A stretch of 64,000 nucleotides of DNA from Escherichia coli (lineage in GTDB: Bacteria; Pseudomonadota; Gammaproteobacteria; Enterobacterales; Enterobacteriaceae), in the NCBI RefSeq assembly GCF_003334785.1, contig NZ_QOWV01000012.1; one strand, 5' to 3'. The number at the start of each line of letters is the position of its first letter. Position 1 is the first letter of the stretch. Made by a program: the position numbers and the translations under genes. The notes beneath the pieces are model-generated. The model saw nothing but the letters and a program-made list of their open reading frames with translations, did not search any database and was not told the origin of the DNA. Positions 15,086-61,414 of the stretch are shown in pieces.

Positions 15086-15427
15086 TCAGGCAACTTTCTG
15101 TTTACCGGCAATCACCCCAATAAATTCCTGCACCTGCTTTTGTTTACGCGCCGACAGCTTGCACACCCTGCGCAGCGACTGCATCAGTTCGCTCTCTTCG
15201 GCGGCGGGTGGTTGAGCGGTGAGGACGATGCAGCCTTCCATCACTTTGACATCTACCGCCGTGCCGGTGGCAAAACCGGCGGCTTCCAGCCACTGACCTT
15301 TCAGGGTGATGGCGGGAATATGCGCGTGATCCGGGTAGCGGCTCGCATAACCGACGGTGACATGACGGTTATTTGCCGGAGAGACTTCTGCTTCGAACGG
15401 TTGTGCAATAGAATACGTGTCAGTCAT
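15086..15427 (-). CDS. symE: SOS-induced toxin-like protein SymE (type I toxin, AbrB/SpoVT fold)
   Basis: ORF 15086-15484; ATG at 15427 gives 113 aa starting [52 protein letters not shown], matching SymE. Confidence 0.85.
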
Positions 15428-15497
15428 AACTGCTATTCTCCGATAATAGTGATTGTGATGAGCGGTGCGGGTGTGTTGGCGCACATCCGCACCGCGC
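15421..15497 (+). ncRNA. symR: SymR antisense sRNA (cis-encoded antitoxin RNA of symE), approximate ends
   Basis: Established knowledge: SymR (~77 nt) is transcribed antisense across the symE RBS/start from a promoter inside symE. Sequence shows a TAGAAT -10 at 15409-15414 on the plus strand and a 9-bp stem hairpin (gcggtgcgg ... ccgcaccgc) ending at 15496. Confidence 0.45.
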
Positions 15498-15503
15498 TAA
15501 ATA

Positions 15504-18647: not shown

Positions 18648-18752
18648 ATCAAGGCGGCAAGTGAGTGAATCCCCGGGAGCGTACAGAAGTACGTGACCGG
18701 GGTGAACGAGCGCAGCCAACGCAGAGGCAGCCTGAAGGATGAAGTGTATACG
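18648..18752. repeat. ERIC/IRU (enterobacterial repetitive intergenic consensus) element
   Basis: aagtgagtgaatccccgggagcgtacagaagtacgtgaccggggtgaacgagcgcagccaacgcagaggcagcctgaaggatgaag matches the ERIC core in the hsdM-hsdR intergenic region. Confidence 0.6.
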
Positions 18753-24634: not shown

Positions 24635-26785
24635 TTAGTGGTGCGAAGAGATCTTCACGCCGCCTTCCGGGATTGGAACGTACGGTGTTTCTTTGTCAGT
24701 ACGTTTGTCGCTGTTACGCACCTTCAGCCAGGTTTTGAAACCGTAGAAGATGATGCTGTACACCACAATCAGGAACAGAATACTCAGGCCCGCGTTGGTG
24801 TAGTTGTTCACAACAATGTGGTTCATGTTGGCAATCTGCTGCGCCGTCAGGTCAGTACCGTTAGCAATCTTCTCTTTGTACTGGCTTGCCATGTAGAAGA
24901 AGCCTTCCATCTGTGGGTTGGTGCTGAACAGTTTCAGACCCAGTGCCCAGGTGGTGCAGATAAGCAGCCATACAGCCGGAACAACGGTAACCCAGATGTA
25001 TTGGGTGCGCTTCATCTTAATCAGCACAACGGTGCCCAGTACCAGCGCCACGGCTGCCAGCATCTGGTTGGAGATACCGAACAGCGGCCACAGGCTCTTA
25101 ACGCCGCCCAGCGGATCGACCACGCCCTGATACAGCAGGTAGCCCCACAGACCCACACAGCCCGCAGTACCGATGATACCGGCAACCAGAGAGTCGGTTT
25201 TTTTCAGGAACGGGATGAAGTTACCCAGCAGGTCTTGCAGCATAAAGCGGCCAGAACGGGTACCCGCATCCAGCGCGGTCAGGATGAACAGGGCTTCGAA
25301 CAGAATACCGAAGTGATACCAGAAGCCCATGTCAGCCATCGGCAGCACTTTGTGGAACACATGAGCGATACCTACCGCCAGCGTCGGCGCACCACCTGCA
25401 CGGTTCAGGACAGAAGGCTCACCAATGTCTTTCGCGGTTTGCAGGATCTGCTCTGGCGAAATCACGAAGCCCCAGGAGCTGACGGTTGCCGCCGCGTGTG
25501 CGGTAACGTCTTTCAGCTGCGCCATGATGATCGGCGCGTTCTCGCCACCCATTTCATGCAGGTTAGGCATGGTGATGCCAAGGCCAGCAGGCGGGGTATT
25601 CATCGCGAAGTAAAGACCCGGTTCGATGATGGACGCAGCAACCAGCGCCATAATCGCCACGAAGGACTCCATCAGCATTGCGCCGTAGCCAATGAAACGC
25701 GCGTCGGTTTCATTAGCCAGCAGTTTCGGCGTCGTACCGGAAGAGATCAGCGCGTGGAAGCCAGATACCGCACCACAGGCGATGGTGATGAACAGGAACG
25801 GGAACAGAGCGCCTTTCCACAGCGGGCCAGTACCGTCAATGTACTGGGTCATCGCAGGCATTTTCAGTTCCGGGTTCAGCACCACGATACCCAGCGCCAG
25901 GCCGACGATAACGCCGATTTTCAGGAAGGTTGCCAGATAGTCGCGCGGTGCGAGGATCAGCCACACCGGCAGCAGTGCGGAAACAAACGCATAGCCAATC
26001 AGCGCGAAGGTAATGGTGGTGTCTTTAAAGGTCAGTGCCGGACCCCAGTACGGATCGTGAGCAATCACGCCACCGAAGTAGATAGAGGCAACCAGCAGCA
26101 CGATACCAATGACAGAGACTTCACCCACACGCCCCGGACGGATAAAGCGCATGTAGATACCCATAAACAGCGCAATCGGTACGGTTGAGCAAACGGTGAA
26201 AACACCCCACGGGCTTTCGGCCAGGGCTTTAACCACAATCAGCGCCAGGACGGCAAGGATGATGATCATGATTAAGAAACAGCCAAACAGCGCGATAGTC
26301 CCCGGTACTGGTCCCATCTCTTCTTTGATCATCTCACCGAGAGATGCGCCGTTACGGCGAGAGGAGATAAACAGCACCATAAAGTCCTGTACCGCACCGG
26401 CCAGTACTACCCCCGCCAGCAGCCACAGCGTGCCAGGTAGGTAGCCCATCTGCGCGGCGAGAACCGGACCAACCAGCGGACCAGCACCGGCGATAGCGGC
26501 GAAGTGGTGACCAAACAACACGTAACGGTTGGTCGGAACGTAGTTCAGACCGTCGTTGTTAATAACCGCAGGCGTCGCGCGCGTGGGGTCGAGTTTCATC
26601 ACCTTCTGGGCGATGTACAAACTGTAGTAGCGATACGCCACCAGATACACCGACACAGAGGCGACCACGATCCACAGGGCGCTGACGTGCTCCCCCCGAC
26701 GTAATGCAACTACCGCGAGGCAGAATGCACCGATGATTCCGAGAATCACCCAGGGTATGTGCTTGAATAGTTTTTTCGTATCCAT
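24635..26785 (-). CDS. btsT: CstA-family pyruvate/H+ symporter BtsT (YjiY)
   Basis: ORF 24635-26800; ATG at 26785 gives 716 aa starting MDTKKLFKHIPWVILGIIGAFCLA; polytopic membrane protein. Confidence 0.9.
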   Translation of the reverse strand: MDTKKLFKHIPWVILGIIGAFCLAVVALRRGEHVSALWIVVASVSVYLVAYRYYSLYIAQKVMKLDPTRATPAVINNDGLNYVPTNRYVLFGHHFAAIAGAGPLVGPVLAAQMGYLPGTLWLLAGVVLAGAVQDFMVLFISSRRNGASLGEMIKEEMGPVPGTIALFGCFLIMIIILAVLALIVVKALAESPWGVFTVCSTVPIALFMGIYMRFIRPGRVGEVSVIGIVLLVASIYFGGVIAHDPYWGPALTFKDTTITFALIGYAFVSALLPVWLILAPRDYLATFLKIGVIVGLALGIVVLNPELKMPAMTQYIDGTGPLWKGALFPFLFITIACGAVSGFHALISSGTTPKLLANETDARFIGYGAMLMESFVAIMALVAASIIEPGLYFAMNTPPAGLGITMPNLHEMGGENAPIIMAQLKDVTAHAAATVSSWGFVISPEQILQTAKDIGEPSVLNRAGGAPTLAVGIAHVFHKVLPMADMGFWYHFGILFEALFILTALDAGTRSGRFMLQDLLGNFIPFLKKTDSLVAGIIGTAGCVGLWGYLLYQGVVDPLGGVKSLWPLFGISNQMLAAVALVLGTVVLIKMKRTQYIWVTVVPAVWLLICTTWALGLKLFSTNPQMEGFFYMASQYKEKIANGTDLTAQQIANMNHIVVNNYTNAGLSILFLIVVYSIIFYGFKTWLKVRNSDKRTDKETPYVPIPEGGVKISSHH

Positions 26786-26842
26786 AGTAAAACCTGGCAT
26801 TTTACTCGTCGTCTTTTGGCTTACAGGTGCGGCAGCTGCGTT

Positions 26843-26897
26843 CGTTCACCTCTGACACTTACTGTTGTAAGCTCCCGGGGATTCACTCACTTGCTGC
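26843..26897. repeat. Partial ERIC/IRU-like element, inverted relative to the copy at 18648-18752
   Basis: Reverse complement (ggcagcaagtgagtgaatccccgggagcttacaacagtaagtgtcagaggtgaacgaacgcagc) aligns with the ERIC copy at 18655-18715. Confidence 0.5.
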
Positions 26898-27135
26898 CTT
26901 CCTGCAAACCAAAATCCATAGAGTAATTTGTTAATCATAGGCCGAAGCCGTTCTAGGTTTGCGTTGCGTTTGAGGAGGTAAATTGACCGCTATCCTGCAG
27001 TGATGTTGCCAGAGATACGCGCGCGTAAAGTAAGGTAAATAACTGAGTGGTTATTTTAGGGATGTAAGCGGTCAGGAATGGCGGTGAGCGGTTGGGCAAG
27101 AATTATTCATCGGGTGGATATGTGATTGAGATCAC

Positions 27136-27171
27136 AATAAAAATGCCCCTTCGACGAATGCGTGAAGGGGC
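27136..27171 (-). terminator. Rho-independent terminator downstream of hpaC
   Basis: Minus strand: gccccttcacgcattcgtcgaaggggc hairpin followed by attttt, a few nt after the hpaC stop. Confidence 0.55.
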
Positions 27172-27177
27172 TGGAGC

Positions 27178-27690
27178 TTAAATCGCAGCTTCCATTTCCA
27201 GCATCACCGGATGGAAACGGCGTTTAAAGTAGATAAGTCCGTGACCTTCTGCACTGAGGATGATGTTTTTAATCTCCACCAGATACACCAGATGTGTGCC
27301 AATTGCCTGCACATCGCGGATCTCACCTTCAAGACTGGCCAGCGAACCTTTTAGCACCGGCTGCGCCAGCGGACCTTTTTGCCAGCATGAGAGGCTAAAA
27401 CGCTCTTCCATCGCCATGCCTGTCATGCCCGCGAAGTGGCGTGCCATCAGTTCCTGCTCATGGTTGAGGACGTTGACGCACAACTTGCCGTTGCCCTGAA
27501 AAACCGGGTTCATCGCACTGTTGGCGTTAATGCACACCATCAGCGACGGTGGTGTATCCGTGACCGAGCAGACAGCCGTTGCCGTAATCCCGCATTGTCC
27601 GGTGTCGCCCTCGGTGGTGATAATATTTACCGCTGCCGACAGGCTGGCCATCGCGTCACGAAAGCGCAGGCGTTGTTCATCTAATTGCAT
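27178..27690 (-). CDS. hpaC: 4-hydroxyphenylacetate 3-monooxygenase reductase component (flavin:NADH oxidoreductase)
   Basis: 170 aa, flavin-reductase-like; directly downstream of hpaB. Confidence 0.9.
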   Translation of the reverse strand: MQLDEQRLRFRDAMASLSAAVNIITTEGDTGQCGITATAVCSVTDTPPSLMVCINANSAMNPVFQGNGKLCVNVLNHEQELMARHFAGMTGMAMEERFSLSCWQKGPLAQPVLKGSLASLEGEIRDVQAIGTHLVYLVEIKNIILSAEGHGLIYFKRRFHPVMLEMEAAI

Positions 27691-27707
27691 CTTAACCTCC
27701 TGCTGCG

Positions 27708-29270
27708 TTATTTCAGCAGCTTATCCAGCATGTTGATATCGTCGTTGTTGTGCAGGTGCGGCACAGTCCAGCCGTTCTGGTCGTATTCCGACAGGCAGCG
27801 ATCAACCATCGCCATCATCTTGTCCATATTGCCGGAGCTTTGTGCCTGGCGCAGACACTGCAGGCGAATCTCATCCTGGCTACCGGAGTAGTTGATTTCA
27901 TACAGTTCGTGGCGACCACCAAACTCGCTGCCAATGGCGTCCCACATCAGTTTGAGGATCTTGATGCGCTGGACGTGATCCATACCATTCGAACCGCGCA
28001 CATACTTCGCCAGATACTGGTCGATCTGCGGATTGTTCAGGTCACGGGCACTGGAAGGGAGGTAGATCAGGCCACTGGTAACGTTGCGTTCGATAATGTT
28101 TTTGATCTTCGCGTAGGCCATTGGTGCCAGTACGCGATAGGTTTGCAGTGCGGCATGATCCGGTAAATAAGCCCCGTTGACCCACGGCGTCGCTTCAGAA
28201 CACATCGAGTCACTCAATGCCCAGAAGGTGTTGCGCCACGCCACCACTTCACCGAGATCGGCCTGCACACCACGGAACTCCAGGGTGCCGGTACATTCGA
28301 GTGATTTTTTCAGCAGTGCCGTAATGAAGTCGAGTTTCACTGCCAGGCGCACACAGGCTTGCAGCGGATACATACGGGCAAAACCGCCTTCCATCGTCCA
28401 GCGACGGCAGCGATCAAAATCGCGGTAGATCAGCACGTTTTCCCATGGGATCAGCACGTTATCCATCACCAGAATCGCATCATTCTCATCGAAGCGGCTG
28501 GAGAGCGGGTAGTCATACGGTGAGCCGGTAGCACCCGCGACCATCTCATAAGAGGCGCGGGAGATTAATTTCACGCCATCAGCATCCATTGGCGCAACGA
28601 ACATCAGCGCGAAGTCCGGGTTTTCGCCCATTACTTGTGCCGAGCCGAAGCCAACCATGTTGTAGTGAGTCAGCGCCGAGTTGGTGGCAACCACTTTCGC
28701 ACCGCTAACGATAATCCCGGCGTCAGTCTCTTTTTCCAGCTTGATGTAAACGTCTTTCACTTTATCGGTCGGCAAATGACGATCGATCGGTGGGTTAACA
28801 ATCGCGTGGTTAAAGTAGAGGCCAGTTTCCTGAATACGGGTATACCAGTTACGGGCGTTCTGCTCGAACTGACCGTAAAAGCCCGGATTCGCGCCCAGTG
28901 CGCAACCGAAAGCAGCTTTGTAGTCTGGGGTACGGCCCATCCAGCCATAGCTCAGGCGTGACCACTCAGCGATGGCGTCGCGTTGCTGGCGCAGGTCGTC
29001 GGCACTTTTCGCCACGCGGAAGAATTTATGGGTATAGCCGCCGCTGCCGGTGTCGGTGTTCCAACACAGAGAGTCCTGCATCTCCGGTTTGTGCAGCGCG
29101 TCGTACAGTTGGGCAACAGACGCTGCCGCATTACGAAATGCCGGATGAGTAGTGACGTCTTTCACTCGCTCGCCATAGATATAGATCTCGCGACCATCCT
29201 GCAGGCTTTTCAGATACTCTTCCCCGGTGAACGGACGTTGGGTACTGGCGCGGAAATCTTCTGGTTTCAT
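27708..29270 (-). CDS. hpaB: 4-hydroxyphenylacetate 3-monooxygenase oxygenase component
   Basis: 520 aa, MKPEDFRASTQRPFTGEEYLKSLQDGREIYIYGERVKDVTTHPAFRNAAASV..., two-component flavin-dependent monooxygenase. Confidence 0.9.
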   Translation of the reverse strand: MKPEDFRASTQRPFTGEEYLKSLQDGREIYIYGERVKDVTTHPAFRNAAASVAQLYDALHKPEMQDSLCWNTDTGSGGYTHKFFRVAKSADDLRQQRDAIAEWSRLSYGWMGRTPDYKAAFGCALGANPGFYGQFEQNARNWYTRIQETGLYFNHAIVNPPIDRHLPTDKVKDVYIKLEKETDAGIIVSGAKVVATNSALTHYNMVGFGSAQVMGENPDFALMFVAPMDADGVKLISRASYEMVAGATGSPYDYPLSSRFDENDAILVMDNVLIPWENVLIYRDFDRCRRWTMEGGFARMYPLQACVRLAVKLDFITALLKKSLECTGTLEFRGVQADLGEVVAWRNTFWALSDSMCSEATPWVNGAYLPDHAALQTYRVLAPMAYAKIKNIIERNVTSGLIYLPSSARDLNNPQIDQYLAKYVRGSNGMDHVQRIKILKLMWDAIGSEFGGRHELYEINYSGSQDEIRLQCLRQAQSSGNMDKMMAMVDRCLSEYDQNGWTVPHLHNNDDINMLDKLLK

Positions 29271-29520
29271 GTCGACCTCTACAGTATTAATCGGAATACG
29301 ATTGTTAATTTTGTGTGTTGTTTTTGTTATTCAATTGAAGCTTGCAGGGGCGATTACGGGAAGAGACTTTTGGGACAATGGCTGGTACTTTTCAGGTCGG
29401 GTACGGTTTTGTGATCGAGGTCGCTTTTAGCGATTTTTGACGTTACTAAATCCCCTTGCTCCAGGCGGAGAAAGGGGAATAGCAGGTGGTGCCTGGTTTC
29501 CCGTTAAGGCTAAGGGATTT

Positions 29521-30411
29521 TCACGTCACAGGTACTTTTTTGGCACGATAAGCACTGGGCGAGCAACCGACTAAGCGATAAAAAAAGCGCGCAAAATAAG
29601 CCGGATCCTTAAAACCGAGTTGCCAGGCAATATTGTTCACGGCGTTATCAGAAAACAGCAGCAGCCGCTTGGCTTCTCGCAGCTGCCTGTCGAAAATCAA
29701 CCGTTTTGGCGGACGGTTGGCAAAGCGACGGCAGATGTCCGTGAGTCGTGATTCGGTGATATGCAGTTCGTTAGCGTAATCCGGTACTGTCCAGTGCTGA
29801 TGAAAATGGCTTTCAATCAGCATATGAAAACGCTGGAACAGTTTTAATTCTCCGCGCATCCCGCTGGCGGCATGGTCGTCGAGTTTTGCGTTACGCAGCA
29901 GTAGGGTGAACACTGCCTGTGCCAGGAGCGTCAGGGTGTGTTCCCGTCCAGGCAGTTGTTCCACCGATTCCCGCTCTATCAGTTGCCAATAGTGTTCCAG
30001 CGCCGCCAGTTCGTCGGGTTTATCTGCCAGTGACAGGCAAATCCCCGGCAGGCCGAAGGTTTCCCGAGTGCCCGGATACAGAACTTCCAGCAGGGGCCAG
30101 ATCAGATCTTCCCGTACCGTCAACACATGACCGTCGGCGTCAGACTCCGTAATAAACGCATGAGGTACTGACGGCGGCGTCAGGACAAACAGGGGCGCTT
30201 CCACCGAGTAGCGATGATCGTCAAGCTGTAGCTCAATCTGTCCGCTATTGAGGAAATGCATCTGAAAGTACTGTTCGTGGCGATGTGGCAGCATATGGCG
30301 GCCAAAAAATGCCGCCATGCGGGCGAACGACTGATAATGCACATCGTCCGTACCCAGGCTTTCATCGTACTCTTTGCTGATATCAATATTGGCAATCTGA
30401 CGGTCACGCAT
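29521..30411 (-). CDS. hpaA: AraC/XylS-family activator of hpaBC
   Basis: 296 aa with C-terminal AraC-type HTH; upstream of hpaBC. Confidence 0.85.
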   Translation of the reverse strand: MRDRQIANIDISKEYDESLGTDDVHYQSFARMAAFFGRHMLPHRHEQYFQMHFLNSGQIELQLDDHRYSVEAPLFVLTPPSVPHAFITESDADGHVLTVREDLIWPLLEVLYPGTRETFGLPGICLSLADKPDELAALEHYWQLIERESVEQLPGREHTLTLLAQAVFTLLLRNAKLDDHAASGMRGELKLFQRFHMLIESHFHQHWTVPDYANELHITESRLTDICRRFANRPPKRLIFDRQLREAKRLLLFSDNAVNNIAWQLGFKDPAYFARFFYRLVGCSPSAYRAKKVPVT

Positions 30412-30420
30412 CGTCGTTCC

Positions 30421-31797
30421 TTACGGGGTCGCTCGCGGACGGGAGGACTGCATTGGAATCGCCCAGATAATCCCCGCACCAATCACCAGCAGCGCGGCAA
30501 CAAACCACAATCCACTGTTAAAGCTGCCGGTCAGATCTTTCAACCAGCCGATCATAAACGGACTTAATGCTGAACCAATGTTGCCAGTGGCGTTGATCAC
30601 CGCAATACCGATCGCTCGTGCCCGCAGGCTGATGGACTGATCCGGTGTTGTCCAGAAAATCGCCATTGCGCTGAATGATCCTGTCGAAGCCATAATGATC
30701 CCCAGCATCTGGATCATGTTGTGATCAGTTGCCGAAGCCAGTAACCAACCAGCGGCAGCGAACAAATAAGGAAGGGCGGTGTGATGCCTTCGTTCCTGGC
30801 GGTGATCTGAGTGACGGCTCCAGTAAATCATCCCGAGAATGGTACAAATCTGCGGTACGGCGGCCAGCAGGCCGATGGTGATATTACTGCTGCCCTGATT
30901 AAAGCTTTGCAGGATCTGCGGTGTCCAGATGCTGATCGCACTAAGTGTGTTGGTCAGGCAGAAATACGCCAGGGTATACATCATCACCACCGGAGTGAAG
31001 ATCTCCCGCCACATGCTGCGTTGTTGCATGGCGTGGTGGCTGATGGCTCCCTCTGGCTGAACCAGCGTCAGACGATCGTTATCCATCATCTCTTGCAGGC
31101 ATTTTTTGTCTTCTTTCGTCAGCCACTTAGCTTTGTCCGGTGAGTCATCAAGCCAGAACCACACCATGATGCCGAGTAATACCGACGGGAAGCCTTCCAG
31201 CAAAAACAGCCACTGCCAGCCTTTTAATGCCATTACGCCATCCAGCGACAAAATGTAGCCGGAAACGATCGATCCCAACGCTGTCGTTACCGGCATTGCC
31301 ACCATAAACAAGGCGTTGGCACGGGCGCGGAAATAGGCCGGAAACCAGAAGGTTAAATACAGCAGAATGCCAGGCAGAAAGCCGGCTTCGGTAATGCCAA
31401 CCAGTATACGCAGTACGTACAAGCTGGTGGGGCCAGTGGCAAACATGGTGGCAGTAGAGGCGATGCCCCAAAGCACCATGATGGTGGCGATCCAGCGCCG
31501 CGCACCGACAATACTCAGCATAATGTTGCTGGGAATGCCGAAGATGACATAAGCGGCGTAGAACAGGGTGGTGGCGAGGCCAAACATGGTGGCGCTCAGA
31601 CCGAGGTCGCGTCCCATCGTGAGTCCGGCAAAGCCGATGTTGATGCGATCAAGGAACGAGAAGATAAACAGCACGAACAGAAAGACGATCAGGCGGCGAA
31701 ACAGCTTCTTAATAACCGCCTGTTGTCCGGCAGTCAGCGCTTTATGCTGATTCGCCGGATCGATACTCTCCGGTATGGCAGGTGAGGTGTCGCTCAT
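30421..31797 (-). CDS. hpaX: 4-hydroxyphenylacetate MFS permease
   Basis: ORF 30421-31857; ATG at 31797 gives 458 aa starting MSDTSPAIPESIDP; 12-TM MFS pattern. Confidence 0.85.
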   Translation of the reverse strand: MSDTSPAIPESIDPANQHKALTAGQQAVIKKLFRRLIVFLFVLFIFSFLDRINIGFAGLTMGRDLGLSATMFGLATTLFYAAYVIFGIPSNIMLSIVGARRWIATIMVLWGIASTATMFATGPTSLYVLRILVGITEAGFLPGILLYLTFWFPAYFRARANALFMVAMPVTTALGSIVSGYILSLDGVMALKGWQWLFLLEGFPSVLLGIMVWFWLDDSPDKAKWLTKEDKKCLQEMMDNDRLTLVQPEGAISHHAMQQRSMWREIFTPVVMMYTLAYFCLTNTLSAISIWTPQILQSFNQGSSNITIGLLAAVPQICTILGMIYWSRHSDHRQERRHHTALPYLFAAAGWLLASATDHNMIQMLGIIMASTGSFSAMAIFWTTPDQSISLRARAIGIAVINATGNIGSALSPFMIGWLKDLTGSFNSGLWFVAALLVIGAGIIWAIPMQSSRPRATP

Positions 31798-31857
31798 TTT
31801 TCTTCCTCTAATGGGATTTTTGTAGGGTACGACAAGGTTTATGGCGGATGCGCACAA

Positions 31858-31970
<113 letters not shown>

Positions 31971-31971
31971 A

Positions 31972-32760
31972 TTAATACACGTCGGGCTTAATCGCTGTAG
32001 CCTGCGCACCAAACCGTGCTGCCAGCGCTTCGGCGGCGCGGGCGAGCAGGGTGGTGTCAACGCCGACGGCGACAAACAGCGCGCCCAGTTCCAGATAGCG
32101 TTTTGCCAGTTGCTCATTGGCGATCAGGATCCCCGGCGCTTTGCCCGCTTCGCGGATCTGCACGATCGCCTGCTCAATCGCGGCCTGTACTTCCGGGTGC
32201 TGAGGATTACCGGCATAACCCATATCGGCGCTCAGATCCGCCGGGCCGATAAACACGCCGTCGACCCCTTCCACGTCCAGAATCTGCGGTAAGTTCTTCA
32301 TTGCCTCACGCGTTTCGATCTGCACCAGCACGCACATTTGATCGTTGGCTTTTTGCAGGTAATCAGGAATACGATTCCAGCGCGAGGCTCGGGCCAGCGC
32401 ACTGCCCACACCGCGAATACCGGCGGGGGGATAACGGGTGGCGCGTACCGCTTCACGGGCTTCGTCAGCGTTTTGAACCATCGGCACCAGTAAGGTTTGT
32501 GTGCCGACATCCAGCAGTTGTTTGATTTGCACCGGATCGTTCCACGACGGACGTACCACCGGCTGGCTGGGGTAGGGCGCAATCGCCTGTAGCTGGGTGA
32601 GCACGGTTTGCACGTTATTCGGCGCGTGCTCACCGTCGATCAATAACCAGTCGAATCCTGCTCCGGCCAGTAACTCTGCGCTGTAGCTGCTACTTAGCCC
32701 CAGCCATAATCCGATCTGCGGGCGGCCTGCTTTCAGCGCCGCTTTAAAACTGTTTTCCAT
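31972..32760 (-). CDS. hpaI: 4-hydroxy-2-oxoheptane-1,7-dioate (HHED) aldolase
   Basis: ORF 31972-32901; ATG at 32760 gives 262 aa starting [26 protein letters not shown] (HpcH/HpaI aldolase family). Confidence 0.85.
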
Positions 32761-32770
32761 CGTTCTCTCC

Positions 32771-33574
32771 TTAAACAAAGCGGCAGCTAATGGAGCCCAT
32801 GTTGCCGTAATCGACGTGGAAGGTATCGCCCTTACGCGCCGGAACCGGGCGGGTGAACGAACCGCCGAGAATGATTTGCCCGGCTTCCAGTTGTACGTCA
32901 TACGGTGCGAGTTTGTTCGCCAGCCAGGCCACGCCGTTTGCCGGATGATTTAGCACACCAGCGGCGACGCCAGTTTCTTCAATCACGCCATTGCGATACA
33001 TCAGGGCGGAGATCCAACGCAGATCCAGTTCGTCTGGTTTGATCGGACGACCGCCGAGGATCACTCCGGCGTTGGCGGCGTTATCAGAAATGGTGTCGAA
33101 CACTTTGCGCGGGCGCTGGGTTTCCGGATCGATGTTGTGGCAGCGGGCGTCGATCAGCTCCAGCGCCGGGATCACGTAGTCCGTGGCGTTGTAGACGTCG
33201 AACAGCGTGCAGTTTGGCCCACGCAGCGGTTTTGCCAGCACAAAAGCCAGCTCCACTTCAATGCGCGGCACGATAAAGCGATCGGTCGGGATATCGCTGC
33301 CATCGTGGAAGAACATGTCGTCCAGCAATGCACCGTAATCTGGCTCGCTGATTTGTGAGCTGGCCTGCATCGCTTTCGAGGTCAGGCCGATTTTGTGGCC
33401 TTTCAGCGTGCGGCCTTCGGCGATTTTCAGTCGGACCCATTCGCGCTGTACGGCGTAGGCGTCTTCAATGGTGATCTCCGGGTAATCCAGCGAGATCGCG
33501 CGGATCTGTTCACGCTGTTTTTCTGCCTGATCCAGACGCTGGGCGATCAGGGTGTGGGTGTGTTTATCGAACAT
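32771..33574 (-). CDS. hpaH: 2-oxo-hept-4-ene-1,7-dioate hydratase
   Basis: ORF 32771-33592; ATG at 33574 gives 267 aa starting [26 protein letters not shown]. Confidence 0.85.
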
Positions 33575-33641
33575 AGCGATATCCTGTGGCATTGCCGGAT
33601 GCGGCTGCGCCTTATCATCCAGCCTGGAAGCTGGTGCAAAT

Positions 33642-34022
33642 TTATTTAAACAACGCGTGTACGTTGTTCTGTTTGAAATTCAACGTCGGGTGCAGCTCTG
33701 CAATCTCAAATGAAAGCGCCAGGTAACGGCTCTCCATCAGTGAGGCGAAGTGCGTTTTAATCAGATCAAACAGCATTTCGCCTACTTCCTGACGGCTTTC
33801 CAGACTGCGCCCGCTGCCGATTTTTAGCGTCATATGCACAAAGGCGTAATCGTGCTTGCCATCAGCCATTTGCCAGGTATCGATCCAGTGTGCCCGGCTA
33901 CGTATTCCCCCAAGCGGAAAAATCCCCGTCGCCGCCAGTGCGGTGTTAACACTGGCAAACAGCTCAGGTAAGCGGGCTTCTTGACGAATATTTTCAGTAC
34001 ATTCCACGATAAAGTGCGGCAT
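33642..34022 (-). CDS. hpaF: 5-carboxymethyl-2-hydroxymuconate isomerase
   Basis: 126 aa, [46 protein letters not shown]. Confidence 0.85.
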
Positions 34023-34031
34023 GGTTTTTCC

Positions 34032-34883
34032 TTACGCGGGAAGCGGGAAAACAGCGTTAACCTGACCAGTGCCAGAGCTTGGGAACAGCTCGGTAATAAA
34101 CTCCACCTTGCCGTCGTATTTATCCCAGCCGAGCATCCCCAGCAGCATCACCGTGTCGTGCATATTGCCTTCGCCGTAGCAGTAGTCGGCGTACTCCGGC
34201 AGCATATTGCAGAACTCTTTGAACTGGCCTTCGCGCCACAGCTTCACCACGCGCTCGTCCATCTGGCGGTCGAACTCGCGGGTGTAGCTGTTCATCCCTT
34301 CTTCTGCACGCTGATCGTCAATAAAGCGGTGCGATAACGAACCGCTGGCAAGGACCGCCACGGTGCCGTCGTACTGTTCGATCGCTTTCAGAATCGCTTC
34401 GCCCAGCTTGCGGCTGTCGGCAAAATCATGAACGGTACAGAATGCGGAGATGGAGACCACTTTGAAGTGCTTGTCTTCATTCATGTAGCGCATCGGCACC
34501 AGCGTGCCGTATTCCAGTTTCAGGCTGGGAATGTTGTGCGTTTTTGCCCGCACGCCGAGCTTTAAGGCTTCATCGGCAATTAGCTGCCCCAACTCCGGGT
34601 TGCCCTCGTAGTTGTAGGTCATGTCACGAATAAAATGCGGCAGCTCGTTACTGGTGTAGACGCCTTCAAAATGGTCTGCACAGTTGATGTGATAAGCACT
34701 GTTGACCAGCCAGTGGGTATCGAAAACGATAATGGTATCGACGCCCATTTCCCGGCAACGCTTGCTGATCTCTTTATGCCCGTCGATCGCACCCTGGCGG
34801 CAACCGTGGTTTTTCCCAGGCAGCTCAGAGAGATACATCGACGGTACGTGCGTGATCTTGGCGGCTAACGCTAACTTACCCAT
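34032..34883 (-). CDS. hpaD: 3,4-dihydroxyphenylacetate (homoprotocatechuate) 2,3-dioxygenase
   Basis: 283 aa extradiol dioxygenase, MGKLALAAKITHVPSMYLSELPGKNHGCRQGAIDGHKEI. Confidence 0.9.
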   Translation of the reverse strand: MGKLALAAKITHVPSMYLSELPGKNHGCRQGAIDGHKEISKRCREMGVDTIIVFDTHWLVNSAYHINCADHFEGVYTSNELPHFIRDMTYNYEGNPELGQLIADEALKLGVRAKTHNIPSLKLEYGTLVPMRYMNEDKHFKVVSISAFCTVHDFADSRKLGEAILKAIEQYDGTVAVLASGSLSHRFIDDQRAEEGMNSYTREFDRQMDERVVKLWREGQFKEFCNMLPEYADYCYGEGNMHDTVMLLGMLGWDKYDGKVEFITELFPSSGTGQVNAVFPLPA

Positions 34884-34884
34884 A

Positions 34885-36351
34885 TCAGACTCCCCATTTC
34901 GGAATTGGATGGTCGCCCATGGAAATGCAGACGTTCTTCATTTCCGCGAACACTTCGAAGCTGTACTCACCGCCTTCACGCCCGGTGCCGGAGGCTTTTA
35001 CGCCGCCAAATGGCTGGCGCAGGTCACGCACGTTCTGGGTGTTGACGAACACCATGCCAGCTTCAATGCCACGCGCCAGGCGTAACACTTTGCTGACATC
35101 CTGTGTCCAGATGTACGACGCGAGGCCGTACTCCACGTCGTTTGCCAGACGTAAGCCTTCGGCTTCGTCTTTAAACGGCAGCAGGCAGGCGACCGGCCCG
35201 AAAATCTCTTCCTGGGCAACGCGCATACGGTTATCTACGTCCGCCAGCACCGTTGGGCGCAGGAAGTTGCCGCCTTTCAGGTGTGCAGGCAGGTCAGACG
35301 GTTTATCCGGGCCGCCCGCCAGCAGGGTTGCGCCTTCTTCAATGCCGAGACGGATATAGCCGGAGACTTTATCCCAGTGTTGCTGGCTGATAAGCGCCCC
35401 AACCTGGGTATTCGGATCGTTCGGATCGCCCACGCGCAGACGGTTGGCGCGTTCGGCAAAGCGTTTAACGAATTCCGGGTAGATGCTTTGCTGAATAAAG
35501 ATGCGCGAACCGGCGGTGCAGCGCTCGCCGTTGATCGAGAAGATGGTGAACAGGGCGGCGTCCAGCGCGCGTTCAATATCGGCATCTTCAAAAATCAGCA
35601 CCGGCGATTTACCGCCCAGTTCCATGGAGTATTTTTTCAGCCCGGCGTTTTTCATGATGTTGCGCCCGGTGGCCGTACCGCCGGTGAACGACACGGCACG
35701 TACGTCATGATGACGAACCAGCGCATCGCCTGCGGTTGCGCCGTAGCCCTGTACCACGTTCAGCACGCCTGCCGGAATACCGGCTTCCAGCGCCAGCTCA
35801 CCCAGGCGGTCAGCGGTCAGCGGGGAGAGTTCCGACATTTTCAGTACCGCGGTATTGCCCAGCGCCAGACACGGCGCGACCTTCCATGTGGCGGTCATAA
35901 ACGGTACGTTCCACGGCGATACCAGCGCACAAACGCCCACCGGCTGCACCAGCGTGTAGTTGAGCATCTTGTCGTCAACCGGATAGGTCTTGCCGTTCAT
36001 CTGCTGGCAGACTTCCGCGAAAAATTCAAAGTTGTGGGAAGCGCGTGGGATCAACACATTTTTGGTCTGATGGATCGGCAGGCCGGTGTCCGCGGTTTCC
36101 ATCGCGGCGATCTCTGGCACGTTCTGGTCGATCAGATCGCCCAGACGGCGCATCAGGCGCGCACGCTCTTTCATCGGCAGATTGGCCCATTTCGGGAACG
36201 CCTCTTTCGCTGCCGCTACCGCCTGATTGATCTCCGCTTCACCGCCAGAGGCCACATCCGCCAGCACTTCACCCGTTGCCGGATTGGTGGTCTGAAAGTA
36301 GTCGTTACCTGCAACATTTTTGCCGTTGATCCAATGATTTACTTTTTTCAT
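34885..36351 (-). CDS. hpaE: 5-carboxymethyl-2-hydroxymuconate semialdehyde dehydrogenase
   Basis: 488-aa NAD-dependent aldehyde dehydrogenase, MKKVNHWINGKNVAGNDYFQTTNPATGEVLADVASGG. Confidence 0.9.
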   Translation of the reverse strand: MKKVNHWINGKNVAGNDYFQTTNPATGEVLADVASGGEAEINQAVAAAKEAFPKWANLPMKERARLMRRLGDLIDQNVPEIAAMETADTGLPIHQTKNVLIPRASHNFEFFAEVCQQMNGKTYPVDDKMLNYTLVQPVGVCALVSPWNVPFMTATWKVAPCLALGNTAVLKMSELSPLTADRLGELALEAGIPAGVLNVVQGYGATAGDALVRHHDVRAVSFTGGTATGRNIMKNAGLKKYSMELGGKSPVLIFEDADIERALDAALFTIFSINGERCTAGSRIFIQQSIYPEFVKRFAERANRLRVGDPNDPNTQVGALISQQHWDKVSGYIRLGIEEGATLLAGGPDKPSDLPAHLKGGNFLRPTVLADVDNRMRVAQEEIFGPVACLLPFKDEAEGLRLANDVEYGLASYIWTQDVSKVLRLARGIEAGMVFVNTQNVRDLRQPFGGVKASGTGREGGEYSFEVFAEMKNVCISMGDHPIPKWGV

Positions 36352-37637
36352 TTCGCTGTTTCCTCACTCACAATTCGGTTCACCAGGCAGCCCACGCCTT
36401 CTACTTCCACCACTACTTCATCGCCAGGCACCACGTCAGATAAGCCTTTTGGTGTGCCGGTGGCGATCATGTCGCCCGGATTCAGGGTCATAAATTCGCT
36501 TAAGTAGGCGATCAGGAAGGGCACGCTGAAGATCAGATCGGCGGTGGTGCCTTGCTGGCGTAACTCGCCGTTGACGAAGGTGCGAAGGGTCAGATTATGC
36601 GGGTCCGGGATCGCCTCTTTCGGCACGATGGTTGAAAGCATCGGCGTCAGTCCGTCGCGGCTTTTTACCCGCAGGTTAGGGCGGTAGTAGTTTTCCAGAT
36701 AGTCGCGAATGGCGTAGTCGTTACACACGGTGTAGCCCGCGACATAATCCATGGCATCGGCTTCGCTGACGTTACGCGCCTGTTTGCCAATAACTACCAC
36801 CAGCTCCGCTTCATAGTGCATGTATTCAATATTGTTTGGACGCACGGAGGTCTGGTTATCGCCAGTGAGGGTATTTGGCGCTTTCAGGAACACCAGCGGT
36901 TCTTCCGGTGGCTTAAATTCCAGTTCGCTGGCGTGGTCGGCGTAGTTCAGGCCGAGGGCAAACAGCGTGCCGTGCGGGTGTGGCTGCGTTGGGAAGCTCT
37001 TGCGCGTGGTCACTTCACGTTCGTCCACTACCGGATTTTCCAGCGGCGGGAAACCTTCTGCGAGAACACGAACGCGATCGCCTGGCTGTATTTCCACGCG
37101 CGCCTGTGGCGTGCCGAGCAGAATGGCATCGCCTGGATTCAGTGTGGCAAATTCGCTCAGGGCGCTCAGCAACTGCGCGGCGTTACGTTGTAAATCGGCG
37201 GTATTCCAGTGATCGGCAGGACGCCCGTTGATCTCGGTATAGATGGTCAGATTATCGACATTGCTGAGAGCCACGGTTTCGCCAATGGGGCAGAATCCAT
37301 CACGACATTTTGCTTTGATTGCCGGGCGGTAAAAGCTCTCTTCCGGCAGGCTGACGTCGTTAGCCAGCGCATATCCGGCGATGTACTCTGCCGCATCTTC
37401 TTCACGTACTTTCGTCGCCGTTTTTCCCACAATCAGCGCAACAGTCGCACCGCTCAGTACCTTTTCACCCTGTGGAAAGGGAATCGGTTCACCGCAACCA
37501 ATCACCGTATTGCGCGGTTTAATAAACCAGACCGCAGTTTTAGGCGGGGCTTTGTAGGGGGATTGCTGGAACGCTTCCTGCCATGCATCAAGTTGGCTGC
37601 GATGGTTCAACGCTACGGCGAAGATAGTGCCTTTCAT
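36348..37637 (-). CDS. hpaG: Bifunctional 2-hydroxyhepta-2,4-diene-1,7-dioate isomerase / 5-carboxymethyl-2-oxo-hex-3-ene-1,7-dioate decarboxylase
   Basis: ORF 36348-37643; ATG at 37637 (GAGGAG Shine-Dalgarno upstream) gives 429 aa; duplicated FAH-family domains. Confidence 0.85.
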   Translation of the reverse strand: MKGTIFAVALNHRSQLDAWQEAFQQSPYKAPPKTAVWFIKPRNTVIGCGEPIPFPQGEKVLSGATVALIVGKTATKVREEDAAEYIAGYALANDVSLPEESFYRPAIKAKCRDGFCPIGETVALSNVDNLTIYTEINGRPADHWNTADLQRNAAQLLSALSEFATLNPGDAILLGTPQARVEIQPGDRVRVLAEGFPPLENPVVDEREVTTRKSFPTQPHPHGTLFALGLNYADHASELEFKPPEEPLVFLKAPNTLTGDNQTSVRPNNIEYMHYEAELVVVIGKQARNVSEADAMDYVAGYTVCNDYAIRDYLENYYRPNLRVKSRDGLTPMLSTIVPKEAIPDPHNLTLRTFVNGELRQQGTTADLIFSVPFLIAYLSEFMTLNPGDMIATGTPKGLSDVVPGDEVVVEVEGVGCLVNRIVSEETAK

Positions 37638-37662
37638 TACCACTCCTCGGATTCGATCATCT

Positions 37663-37686
37663 TAATCATTAATATGTTAATGATTA
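37663..37686. promoter_or_regulatory. Perfect 10-bp inverted repeat (TAATCATTAA-tatg-TTAATGATTA), candidate HpaR operator in the hpaG promoter
   Basis: Palindrome seen directly, 26-49 nt upstream of the hpaG start in the hpaG-hpaR divergent region; HpaR is known to repress this promoter through palindromic operators. Confidence 0.4.
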
Positions 37687-37908
37687 CTTTTATTCCCGAT
37701 TGCGTAGTTTGGCAAAAGTAAGTGATGTAAATGTGATCTAATTAACAAACTATTTACATTTAAAGATAATAAAATATTAAATATCATTAAGTTAATAAAA
37801 TATCATCAATTTTGATAAAATCAGGAATTGCAGGGACAGCGCAGTCCCGGTAACGTGACGATTAACTGTTTCTATATTAATAATTTTGAATTTTTCAGGG
37901 GAAAGATA

Positions 37909-38355
37909 ATGCACGACTCTCTAACCATTGCGTTGCTCCAGGCGCGAGAAGCGGCGATGAGTTATTTTCGCCCAATCGTTAAACGGCATAATTTGACTGA
38001 GCAACAGTGGCGCATCGTGCGTATTCTGGCGGAAAGCCCATCAATGGATTTTCACGATCTGGCGTATCGTGCCTGCATTTTGCGCCCAAGCCTGACCGGG
38101 ATCCTTACGCGGATGGAACGCGACGGTTTAGTGTTGCGATTAAAGCCGATCAATGATCAGCGGAAGCTCTATATCTCGCTGACCAAAGAGGGGCAGGCGC
38201 TGTATAACCGCGCTCAGACACAGATTGAAGAAGCCTATCGGCAGATTGAAGCTCAGTTTACTGCCGAGAAAATGCAACTGTTAACCCATCTGTTAGAGGA
38301 ATTTATTGCTCTGGGCAATTCCCGACAAGAAGACATCCCGGGCGATAATGAATAA
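37909..38355 (+). CDS. hpaR: MarR-family repressor of the hpa meta-cleavage operon
   Basis: ORF 37828-38355; ATG at 37909 gives 148 aa starting MHDSLTIALLQAREAAMSYFRPIVKRHNLTEQQWRIVRILAESPSMDFHDLA (MarR winged helix). Confidence 0.85.
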   Translation: MHDSLTIALLQAREAAMSYFRPIVKRHNLTEQQWRIVRILAESPSMDFHDLAYRACILRPSLTGILTRMERDGLVLRLKPINDQRKLYISLTKEGQALYNRAQTQIEEAYRQIEAQFTAEKMQLLTHLLEEFIALGNSRQEDIPGDNE

Positions 38356-38473
38356 CTTTTTAGTATCTGATAACCAGCCCCTGGTTTTTCCATGGATGGC
38401 GGGTTACACCTTTTCATAAAGTTTTTGCTTTCCAGGCCGAAAATCTTGCATCGGTCCACAGGAAAGAGAAACC

Positions 38474-40138
38474 ATGTTAAAACGTATCAAGATCGTGACC
38501 AGCTTACTGCTGGTTTTGGCCGTTTTTGGCCTTTTACAACTGACATCAGGCGGTCTGTTCTTTAATGCCTTAAAGAATGACAAAGAAAATTTCACTGTTT
38601 TACAAACCATTCGCCAGCAGCAATCCACGCTGAATGGCAGCTGGGTCGCGTTGTTGCAGACGCGTAACACCCTCAACCGCGCGGGTATCCGCTACATGAT
38701 GGATCAGAATAATATTGGTAGCGGTTCAACCGTTGCTGAGCTGATGCAGAGTGCCAGTATTTCGCTGAAACAGGCGGAAAAAAACTGGGCGGATTACGAA
38801 GCGTTGCCGCGTGACCCGCGTCAGAGCACCGCCGCAGCGGCAGAGATCAAACGTAATTACGATATTTATCACAATGCGCTGGCGGAGCTGATCCAACTGT
38901 TAGGTGCAGGCAAAATCAACGAGTTCTTTGATCAGCCGACTCAGGGATATCAGGACGGTTTCGAGAAGCAGTATGTGGCTTACATGGAACAAAACGATCG
39001 GCTCCATGATATCGCCGTCAGCGATAACAATGCCTCCTACAGCCAGGCGATGTGGATTCTGGTGGGCGTGATGATCGTCGTACTGGCGGTCATCTTCGCC
39101 GTCTGGTTCGGTATTAAAGCCTCGCTGGTAGCGCCAATGAATCGCCTGATTGACAGCATTCGTCATATTGCAGGCGGCGATCTGGTGAAACCGATTGAGG
39201 TGGATGGCTCTAATGAGATGGGGCAACTGGCAGAGAGTTTGCGCCATATGCAGGGAGAGCTGATGCGTACCGTCGGTGATGTGCGCAACGGGGCCAATGC
39301 CATCTATAGCGGTGCCAGCGAAATCGCTACCGGCAATAACGATCTCTCTTCGCGCACCGAGCAACAGGCTGCTTCGCTGGAAGAGACGGCAGCCAGCATG
39401 GAGCAACTGACCGCAACGGTGAAACAGAACGCCGAGAATGCGCGCCAGGCCAGCCACCTGGCGTTAAGTGCTTCTGAAACGGCGCAACGCGGCGGCAAAG
39501 TGGTAGATAACGTGGTGCAGACTATGCGTGATATCTCCACCAGTTCGCAGAAAATCGCCGATATTATCAGCGTAATTGACGGCATTGCCTTCCAGACCAA
39601 TATTCTGGCTTTGAACGCGGCGGTTGAAGCAGCGCGTGCGGGTGAGCAAGGACGTGGTTTTGCGGTGGTTGCGGGAGAAGTGCGTAATCTGGCCCAGCGT
39701 AGCGCCCAGGCGGCTCGTGAAATTAAAAGCCTGATTGAAGACTCGGTGGGGAAAGTGGATGTTGGCTCTACGCTGGTCGAAAGCGCCGGGGAAACAATGG
39801 CGGAGATTGTCAGTGCTGTGACCCGCGTGACGGACATTATGGGCGAAATTGCTTCTGCTTCTGATGAGCAGAGCCGTGGTATCGATCAGGTTGGCTTAGC
39901 GGTTGCTGAGATGGACCGGGTAACTCAACAGAACGCCGCGCTGGTGGAAGAATCTGCCGCCGCCGCCGCCGCGCTGGAAGAGCAGGCCAGTCGCCTGACC
40001 GAAGCAGTGGCAGTGTTCCGGATTCAGCAACAGCAGCAACAGCAGCGTGAAACATCGGCTGTGGTAAAAAACGTGACGCCAGCTACGCCGCGTAAAATGG
40101 CAGTGGCAGATAGCGGGGAGAACTGGGAAACGTTTTAA
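38474..40138 (+). CDS. tsr: Methyl-accepting chemotaxis protein I (serine chemoreceptor)
   Basis: 554 aa, [57 protein letters not shown] ... C-terminal NWETF pentapeptide. Confidence 0.95.
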
Positions 40139-52908: not shown

Positions 52909-52995
52909 TGGTGCGAGGGGGGGGACTTGAACCCCCACGTCCGTAAGGACACTAACACCTGAAGCTAGCGCGTCTACCAATTCCGCCACCTTCGC
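52909..52995 (-). tRNA. leuV: tRNA-Leu (anticodon CAG), single copy
   Basis: Minus strand reads GCGAAGGTGGCGGAATTGGTAGACGCGCTAGCTTCAGGTGTTAGTGTCCTTACGGACGTGGGGGTTCAAGTCCCCCCCCTCGCACCA, 87 nt with encoded CCA; cloverleaf and long variable arm typical of tRNA-Leu. Confidence 0.9.

Positions 52996-53114: not shown

Positions 53115-53292
<178 letters not shown>

Positions 53293-60902: not shown

Positions 60903-61414
<512 letters not shown>

Follow-up and report, generated by a model that had tools for sequence, protein, structure and literature searches.

How did the genes for 4-hydroxyphenylacetate (4-HPA) catabolism come to lie between btsT and tsr in some strains of Escherichia coli and to be missing there from K-12: by gain in the carriers or by loss in the others? 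We addressed this question in a 64,000-nucleotide stretch of E. coli DNA (RefSeq assembly GCF_003334785.1, contig NZ_QOWV01000012.1; hereafter the window), in which the hpa gene cluster occupies positions 27178-38355. An earlier reading of the letters of the window, made without database searches (the sequence-only reading), had described the cluster as an 11-kb metabolic island inserted between btsT and tsr, and had assigned the window to a B/C/W-like lineage. We conclude, with high confidence, that it represents the canonical hpa (homoprotocatechuate meta-cleavage) cluster of E. coli, that it stands at its ancestral btsT-tsr position, and that it was lost in the K-12-type allele. The cluster, its absence from K-12 and the hypothesis of loss are already known from the literature: strains B, C and W grow on HPA and K-12 does not, the K-12 cluster having probably been lost (PMC7201708, citing a 2001 review), and hpa is listed as a difference between B and K-12 (PMC3446290). 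A literature search linking hpa with btsT and tsr gave nothing.

The evidence for ancestral presence comes from relatives. We scanned one genome per bacterial species for HpaH, took the best 80 loci with 10 kb of flanking DNA, and mapped the proteins of the window onto them. The order tsr-hpaR-hpaGEDFHI-hpaX-hpaA-hpaBC-btsT-yjiX occurs in Pseudocitrobacter (two loci, L006 and L008), Enterobacter (four loci), Lelliottia (one locus) and Citrobacter (one locus), and the adjacency of hpaC and btsT is also seen in Klebsiella, Raoultella and further Citrobacter. Closer to the window is locus L007, labelled E. coli SCPM-O-B-8794, which matches the window at 91.6% nucleotide identity over 13 kb of collinear sequence, reaching from hpaB past tsr to lgoT and lgoR, and has a Tsr protein with 94% amino acid identity. 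Despite its E. coli label this genome is a separate species representative in the genome collection, and it probably belongs to a cryptic Escherichia species filed as E. coli.

The divergence of the cluster resembles that of its surroundings. In the outgroups, nucleotide identity to the window is 74-90% for the hpa genes and 79-88% for the flanking genes yjiA, btsT and tsr, so the ranges overlap; among E. coli genomes, the cluster and the flanks are equally similar (97.8-99.3% identity for the cluster). The cluster has a G+C content of 0.544, the two flanks 0.534 and 0.509, and the whole window 0.518, and G+C content at third codon positions is 0.56-0.71 in the hpa genes versus 0.58-0.69 in the flanking genes. 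Because the btsT-hpa-tsr arrangement is shared with other genera and with L007, because cluster divergence matches that of the flanks, and because the G+C content is native, the most parsimonious interpretation is that the cluster would be ancestral at the btsT-tsr site and the K-12 state a derived loss. The terms "inserted" and "metabolic island" are not supported by this comparison: a presence/absence difference relative to K-12 is not evidence of insertion, since outgroup synteny makes K-12 the derived state.

K-12 does lack the cluster and does have btsT next to tsr, as had been stated: in MG1655 the btsT-tsr gap is 377 bp and contains zero hpa genes. We located the edges of the difference by alignment. 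On the left side, homology between the window and K-12 is continuous from btsT to position 26800, is interrupted by 130 bp present only in the window (26801-26930), restarts at 26931-27091, and can be traced through a perfect CRP-consensus site, TGTGATTGAGATCACA, at 27121-27136. No other perfect TGTGA-N6-TCACA exists in the window, and the other alleles described below have an equivalent site that aligns with it; because CRP-like matches are no more frequent in the window than chance predicts, we assign the site to CRP only from its position and its conservation between alleles. On the right side, homology restarts at about 38415, at a TAAAGTTT-N11-GCCGAAAA element (alignment of four alleles and L007), which we take to fit the sigma-28 consensus as it is generally known. 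The variable segment extends over approximately 27140-38414 and is not bounded by gene ends.

In K-12 the site is not simply empty. Between the two boundaries it holds about 80-130 bp of AT-rich filler, and a short-word BLAST search with K-12 intergenic positions ~184-316 against the window and 85 loci found no homologue of this filler in the hpa allele or the outgroups; the sole match was to the CRP-site portion (Klebsiella, E = 0.7). A search of the junctions for att-like direct repeats gave none, and the site has no tRNA gene. Nor are there mobility genes in the flanks, as had been stated, in the annotation of E. coli strain E2 (from poultry; NZ_CP104509), which is 100% identical to window positions 26000-39200.

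A survey of 5426 complete E. coli genomes, in which a genome was counted as hpa-positive if at least 80% of a 13.2-kb query was covered, showed four alleles at the btsT-tsr site. The hpa cluster is present in 2065 genomes (38%) and the K-12-type junction in 2752. A five-gene cluster (locus L004, 1287-7442) occupies the site in 194 genomes; its genes, named from annotation that lists amidohydrolase, deaminase and transporter genes, are an amino acid deaminase, a member of the N-acyl-D-amino-acid deacylase family, RidA, a sodium:solute symporter and a MurR/RpiR regulator. The remaining allele, in 363 genomes, is an O157-type segment (locus L005, 1287-2349) with an open reading frame (ORF) of 180 amino acids that matched no family in NCBIfam. 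Together the four alleles account for 5374 of the 5426 genomes (99%), and in alignment their left and right boundaries are identical. We found no credible plasmid copies of the cluster in E. coli, only four very large non-mobilizable records (0.37-4.8 Mb) that are labelled as plasmids but most likely represent chromosomal sequence under a wrong label.

K-12 and strain HUSEC2011 have K-12-type junctions that are 99.7% identical, and in 712 genomes the identity is only 90-95%. Since this junction has a single structure in K-12 and HUSEC2011 and yet is no more than 90-95% identical in those 712 genomes, we suggest that it may be one old allele rather than the product of repeated deletions. Nor are the carriers of hpa a single lineage. 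We take carriers W and O111 to belong to phylogroup B1 and the B derivatives to phylogroup A, and among the non-carriers we take K-12 to be in phylogroup A and HUSEC2011 in B1. The assignment of the window to a B/C/W-like lineage fails for this reason, for the frequency of the cluster, and for the hpaF allele of the window, which differs from that of W and C; the cluster is no marker of such a lineage.

The 130-bp segment that separates the window from K-12 in the btsT leader is an imperfect palindrome resembling enterobacterial repetitive intergenic consensus (ERIC, or IRU) elements, which are themselves imperfect palindromes of ~127 bp that have a conserved core and lie in transcribed intergenic DNA. 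The segment folds as a long hairpin (-53.2 kcal/mol, z = -6.4) and has one mismatch to the ERIC1R primer core, the comparison having been made with this primer core. Megablast found no further copies of it, as expected for diverged copies. The element is present in 2062 of the 5426 complete genomes, almost exactly the 2065 hpa-positive ones, and K-12, the other alleles and the outgroup genera lack it. The element may alter the structure or stability of btsT mRNA in hpa-positive strains. An in-frame ATG at 26800, which abuts the edge of the ERIC insertion, would lengthen btsT by 5 codons (721 versus 716 amino acids). There is a second match to the ERIC core, with two mismatches, at window positions 18665-18684 on the minus strand.

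Within the cluster, one gene departs from the general pattern of similarity. The window and E. coli W have 96-99% nucleotide identity across the cluster, except in a block at ~33300-34060 (70-88%) that comprises hpaF and the adjoining ends of hpaH and hpaD; hpaF itself has 80% nucleotide and 84% amino acid identity between the two. The window type of hpaF occurs in ~1084 genomes, is internally diverse and is 96% identical to L007. The W type occurs in ~987 genomes, 929 of them at least 99% identical to W, and is 93% identical to Pseudocitrobacter; the E. coli C enzyme in PDB entry 1OTG is a W-type HpaF. The resemblance to Pseudocitrobacter extends beyond hpaF. In Pseudocitrobacter vendiensis (L006) the central hpaI-hpaE region has 90-99% nucleotide identity to E. 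coli, versus 79-87% in the flanking genes btsT, yjiA and tsr, and its HpaH and HpaE proteins have 100% amino acid identity to those of E. coli. This pattern indicates that the meta-cleavage operon has probably been exchanged between Escherichia and Pseudocitrobacter. In both Pseudocitrobacter loci, the high-identity region is the equivalent of window positions 32000-38320.

The five-gene allele carries a terminator with the same stem as the hpaC terminator (ATGCCCCTTCG...CGAAGGGGC) and a different loop (L004 ~1500-1560 versus window 27121-27171), which places the breakpoint between the hpa and five-gene cassettes inside the hairpin. We propose, tentatively and at somewhat less than even confidence, that btsT-tsr is a cassette-exchange site with four alleles, in which the CRP-like site of btsT fixes one boundary and the sigma-28 -35 element of tsr the other, and for which the shared terminator stem serves as a recombination anchor. 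The same proposal includes the two near-equally common alleles of hpaF, one of them shared with Pseudocitrobacter, as pointing to intergeneric recombination in an otherwise vertical operon.

Three observations weigh against a simple history of ancestral presence followed by loss. The loss was more than a plain deletion, since nothing homologous to the K-12 filler was detected in the hpa allele or in the outgroups. The best 80 HpaH relatives include no locus from E. albertii or E. fergusonii, so the presence of hpa across the genus Escherichia is patchy, which leaves some room for re-acquisition by recombination in the flanks. And part of the history of the cluster appears not to be vertical, hpaF and the central region having been exchanged between genera. 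One could accordingly suppose that Escherichia or E. coli, at an early stage, lost a cluster that is ancestral in Enterobacteriaceae and then regained it from a related enterobacterium by homologous recombination through the btsT and tsr flanks. The missing E. albertii and E. fergusonii loci favor such a regain, as do the signs of intergeneric exchange, both in W-type hpaF (closer to Pseudocitrobacter than to the window allele) and in the Pseudocitrobacter hpaI-hpaE region; the confinement of the ERIC insertion to the hpa haplotype also implies that haplotypes rarely recombine with each other. But the diversity of the cluster in E. coli (~2%) equals that of the flanks, and the identity of L007 is steady over the cluster and the right flank (tsr, lgoT, lgoR), which fits vertical descent. 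No donor was found in which both the flanks and the cluster are close to E. coli, and the exchange with Pseudocitrobacter could equally have run outward from E. coli. We regard early loss and regain as unlikely.

The island interpretation, in which an ancestor resembling B, C and W gained the 11-kb segment horizontally and K-12 retains the original empty site, draws on the sharp boundaries and on the fact that presence and absence are both common in E. coli, 62% of complete genomes having no cluster. Other observations speak against it: several genera and a divergent Escherichia lineage have the same gene order at the same position, the composition is that of the host, there is no integrase, transposase, tRNA gene, att target or direct repeat at the site, the filler in K-12 is unrelated sequence, and the carriers do not form one lineage, the window having an hpaF allele unlike that of W and C. 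Outgroup synteny largely refutes this interpretation, and we consider it very improbable. Ancestral presence with loss in the K-12-type allele remains the reading that we prefer.

The cluster in the window is complete and intact, as the sequence-only reading had claimed. Ten ORFs (hpaC, hpaB, hpaA, hpaX, hpaI, hpaH, hpaF, hpaD, hpaE and hpaG) lie on the minus strand and hpaR on the plus strand (Table 1). All 11 proteins score above the curated cut-off of their own NCBIfam equivalog models with end-to-end matches, no gene has an internal stop, and start and stop codons are ordinary. The starts of hpaX, hpaI, hpaH, hpaG and hpaR are internal to the longest ORFs, those of hpaX and hpaR being as in the RefSeq annotation of strain E2. 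That annotation has the identical 11 genes between btsT and tsr, with zero pseudogene flags, and has yjiX, yjiA and mrr as neighbors on the left and lgoT and lgoR on the right. Both flanking genes that had been named were identified. BtsT scores 1012 bits against the CstA-family model NF011590, under the cut-off of 1188, which is what a paralogue such as BtsT should give.

Table 1. Features of the hpa locus and its borders, in window coordinates (bit scores are for the NCBIfam model named; 4-HPA, 4-hydroxyphenylacetate; MFS, major facilitator superfamily).
Feature	Coordinates	Strand	Details
btsT (yjiY), pyruvate/H+ symporter, left flank	24635..26785	-	RefSeq annotation of 100%-identical strain E2
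ERIC-like 130-bp imperfect palindrome	26801..26930	.	between btsT promoter region and btsT start codon
Conserved btsT upstream (promoter) region, common to all four alleles	26931..27140	-	93% identity to K-12; ends in TGTGATTGAGATCACA
Intrinsic terminator after hpaC	27145..27171	-	stem GCCCCTTC...GAAGGGGC, then T-run 27138-27144
hpaC, flavin reductase component of 4-HPA 3-monooxygenase	27178..27690	-	NF012030, 384 bits (cut-off 315), residues 1-170 of 170
hpaB, oxygenase component of 4-HPA 3-monooxygenase, Arg379	27708..29270	-	TIGR02310, 1109 bits (cut-off 885)
hpaA-hpaB intergenic region, expected hpaBC promoter	29271..29520	-	putative role, taken from published model
hpaA, AraC-family activator	29521..30411	-	TIGR02297, 385 bits (cut-off 275)
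hpaX, MFS 4-HPA permease	30421..31797	-	458 amino acids from RefSeq start; TIGR02332, 890 bits (cut-off 615)
REP cluster (BIME-like), hpaX/hpaI spacer	31856..31970	.	units ~31856-31871 (weak), 31894-31927, inverted 31942-31970
hpaI, 4-hydroxy-2-oxoheptanedioate aldolase	31972..32760	-	TIGR02311, 433 bits (cut-off 369)
hpaH, 2-oxo-hept-4-ene-1,7-dioate hydratase	32771..33574	-	TIGR02312, 465 bits (cut-off 352)
hpaF, 5-carboxymethyl-2-hydroxymuconate isomerase, window-type allele	33642..34022	-	NF011605, 264 bits (cut-off 215)
hpaD, 3,4-dihydroxyphenylacetate 2,3-dioxygenase	34032..34883	-	TIGR02298, 549 bits (cut-off 316)
hpaE, CHMS dehydrogenase	34885..36351	-	TIGR02299, 739 bits (cut-off 638)
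hpaG, bifunctional isomerase/decarboxylase	36348..37637	-	NF011750, 978 bits (cut-off 811)
AT-rich divergent hpaG/hpaR control region	37638..37908	.	G+C content 0.43-0.47; sigma-70-like hexamers
Perfect 10+10 palindrome with 4-nt spacer, putative HpaR operator	37663..37686	.	TAATCATTAA-TATG-TTAATGATTA
hpaR, MarR-family repressor	37909..38355	+	TIGR02337, 198 bits (cut-off 121)
Sigma-28-type promoter-like element of tsr	38417..38443	+	TAAAGTTT-N11-GCCGAAAA
tsr, serine chemoreceptor, right flank	38474..40138	+	NF011615, 1222 bits

The regulatory and repetitive elements that had been noted in the cluster are also present. The palindrome before hpaG is perfect, is located 26 bp upstream of the gene, and contains the TTAA-N4-TTAA motif with which HpaR sites have been reported (PMC7180172). 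Of the 80 related loci, 41 have its core, CATTAA-N4-TTAATG, at the corresponding place ahead of hpaG, in a range from Escherichia to Serratia. This conservation of the core is a strong phylogenetic footprint, and the palindrome is a probable HpaR operator of the hpaG promoter. A CRP-like match with one mismatch lies at 37732-37747, in the hpaG/hpaR region, the count of such matches in the window being no higher than expected by chance.

The terminator after hpaC, likewise predicted earlier, is supported by folding as a G+C-rich hairpin (-18.2 kcal/mol, z = -3.1) followed by a T-run, and begins six bases past the hpaC stop codon; a consensus terminator scan missed it on account of its bulge and loop. 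Since hpaC and btsT are both transcribed leftward, the terminator probably shields the btsT promoter against read-through. The repetitive extragenic palindromic (REP) elements inside the cluster are imperfect palindromes of ~35 nucleotides from a dispersed intergenic family, arranged as an inverted pair: the unit at 31894-31927 has seven copies in the window versus zero expected from shuffled sequences, and its inverted partner follows at 31942-31970. Other REP copies in the window score as the REP-derived Rfam family naRNA4. Tandem REP arrays with ~101-bp spacing lie at window positions 60995-61376 and 53140-53284, with naRNA4 (CssrE) matches, four at 61 kb and one at 53 kb. Elsewhere in the window there are a SymR antitoxin RNA at 15422-15498 (plus strand, 89.5 bits) and a tRNA gene at 52912-52995 (minus strand).

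Gene identity, intactness, synteny, junctions and allele counts were computed here, and enzyme roles, regulation and growth phenotype are taken from the literature; the OPR1/OPR2 operators and the control of the hpa promoters by HpaA and CRP are background, in part from secondary sources. On this basis HpaX would import 4-HPA or 3-hydroxyphenylacetate (3-HPA), and HpaBC, a two-component flavin monooxygenase, would convert either of them to 3,4-dihydroxyphenylacetate (homoprotocatechuate). HpaD would open the ring, and HpaE, HpaF, HpaG, HpaH and HpaI would convert the ring-cleavage product to pyruvate and succinic semialdehyde. HpaA, of the AraC family, is expected to activate hpaBC, and HpaR, of the MarR family, to repress hpaGEDFHI through the palindrome just upstream of hpaG. 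An HpaB variant with Arg379 permits growth on both 3-HPA and 4-HPA (PMC7201708). Because HpaB in the window has Arg at residue 379, we predict growth on both isomers.

In evolutionary terms, the space between the btsT and tsr promoters would be the ancestral place of the cluster in enterobacteria. The allele found in K-12 and in roughly half of E. coli genomes would be an old one that has lost both the cluster and its terminator and has some 80-130 bp of AT-rich sequence instead, and the two minority alleles would hold other cargo between those same two boundaries. The discovery value of these results is small. Minor leads for E. coli population genomics are the four alleles between constant boundaries, the association of the ERIC element with hpa, and the hpaF allele that is shared with Pseudocitrobacter.

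Compared with known systems, the locus resembles genomic islands in its variable presence within a species and its sharp boundaries, but differs from them in that it lacks an integrase, a tRNA target, direct repeats and a deviating base composition, and in that outgroups have the cluster at the same site. The cluster of Salmonella arizonae differs from that of the window in that hpaBC has moved beside hpaR and the flanks are without btsT and tsr. The clusters of Klebsiella, Enterobacter, Citrobacter and Pseudocitrobacter are like that of the window in gene order, in the position of btsT by hpaC and in the operator core, and in the motile genera among them tsr adjoins hpaR. They differ in nucleotide identity (74-90%) and in having no ERIC element in the btsT leader, and some of these clusters have a diverged hpaX (~70% amino acid identity) or hpaG.

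The closest counterpart is E. coli W, together with the equivalent hpc/hpa clusters of C and B. W differs from the window in its hpaF allele and in an hpaH-hpaF spacer of 110 bp, compared with 67 bp. W and its derivative KO11FL also have penicillin G acylase beside yjiA (L086, 6870-9410), where strain E2, like the window, has mrr (L002, 1-370); this is a second strain difference, a few kb to the left of the hpa site. In the 11 genes, their order and orientation, and their btsT and tsr flanks, W and the window are alike, as they are in the REP elements between hpaX and hpaI and in the HpaR palindrome before hpaG; in annotation, KO11FL and E2 have an identical organization, with hpaR divergent from hpaGEDFHI, followed by hpaX-hpaA and hpaBC.

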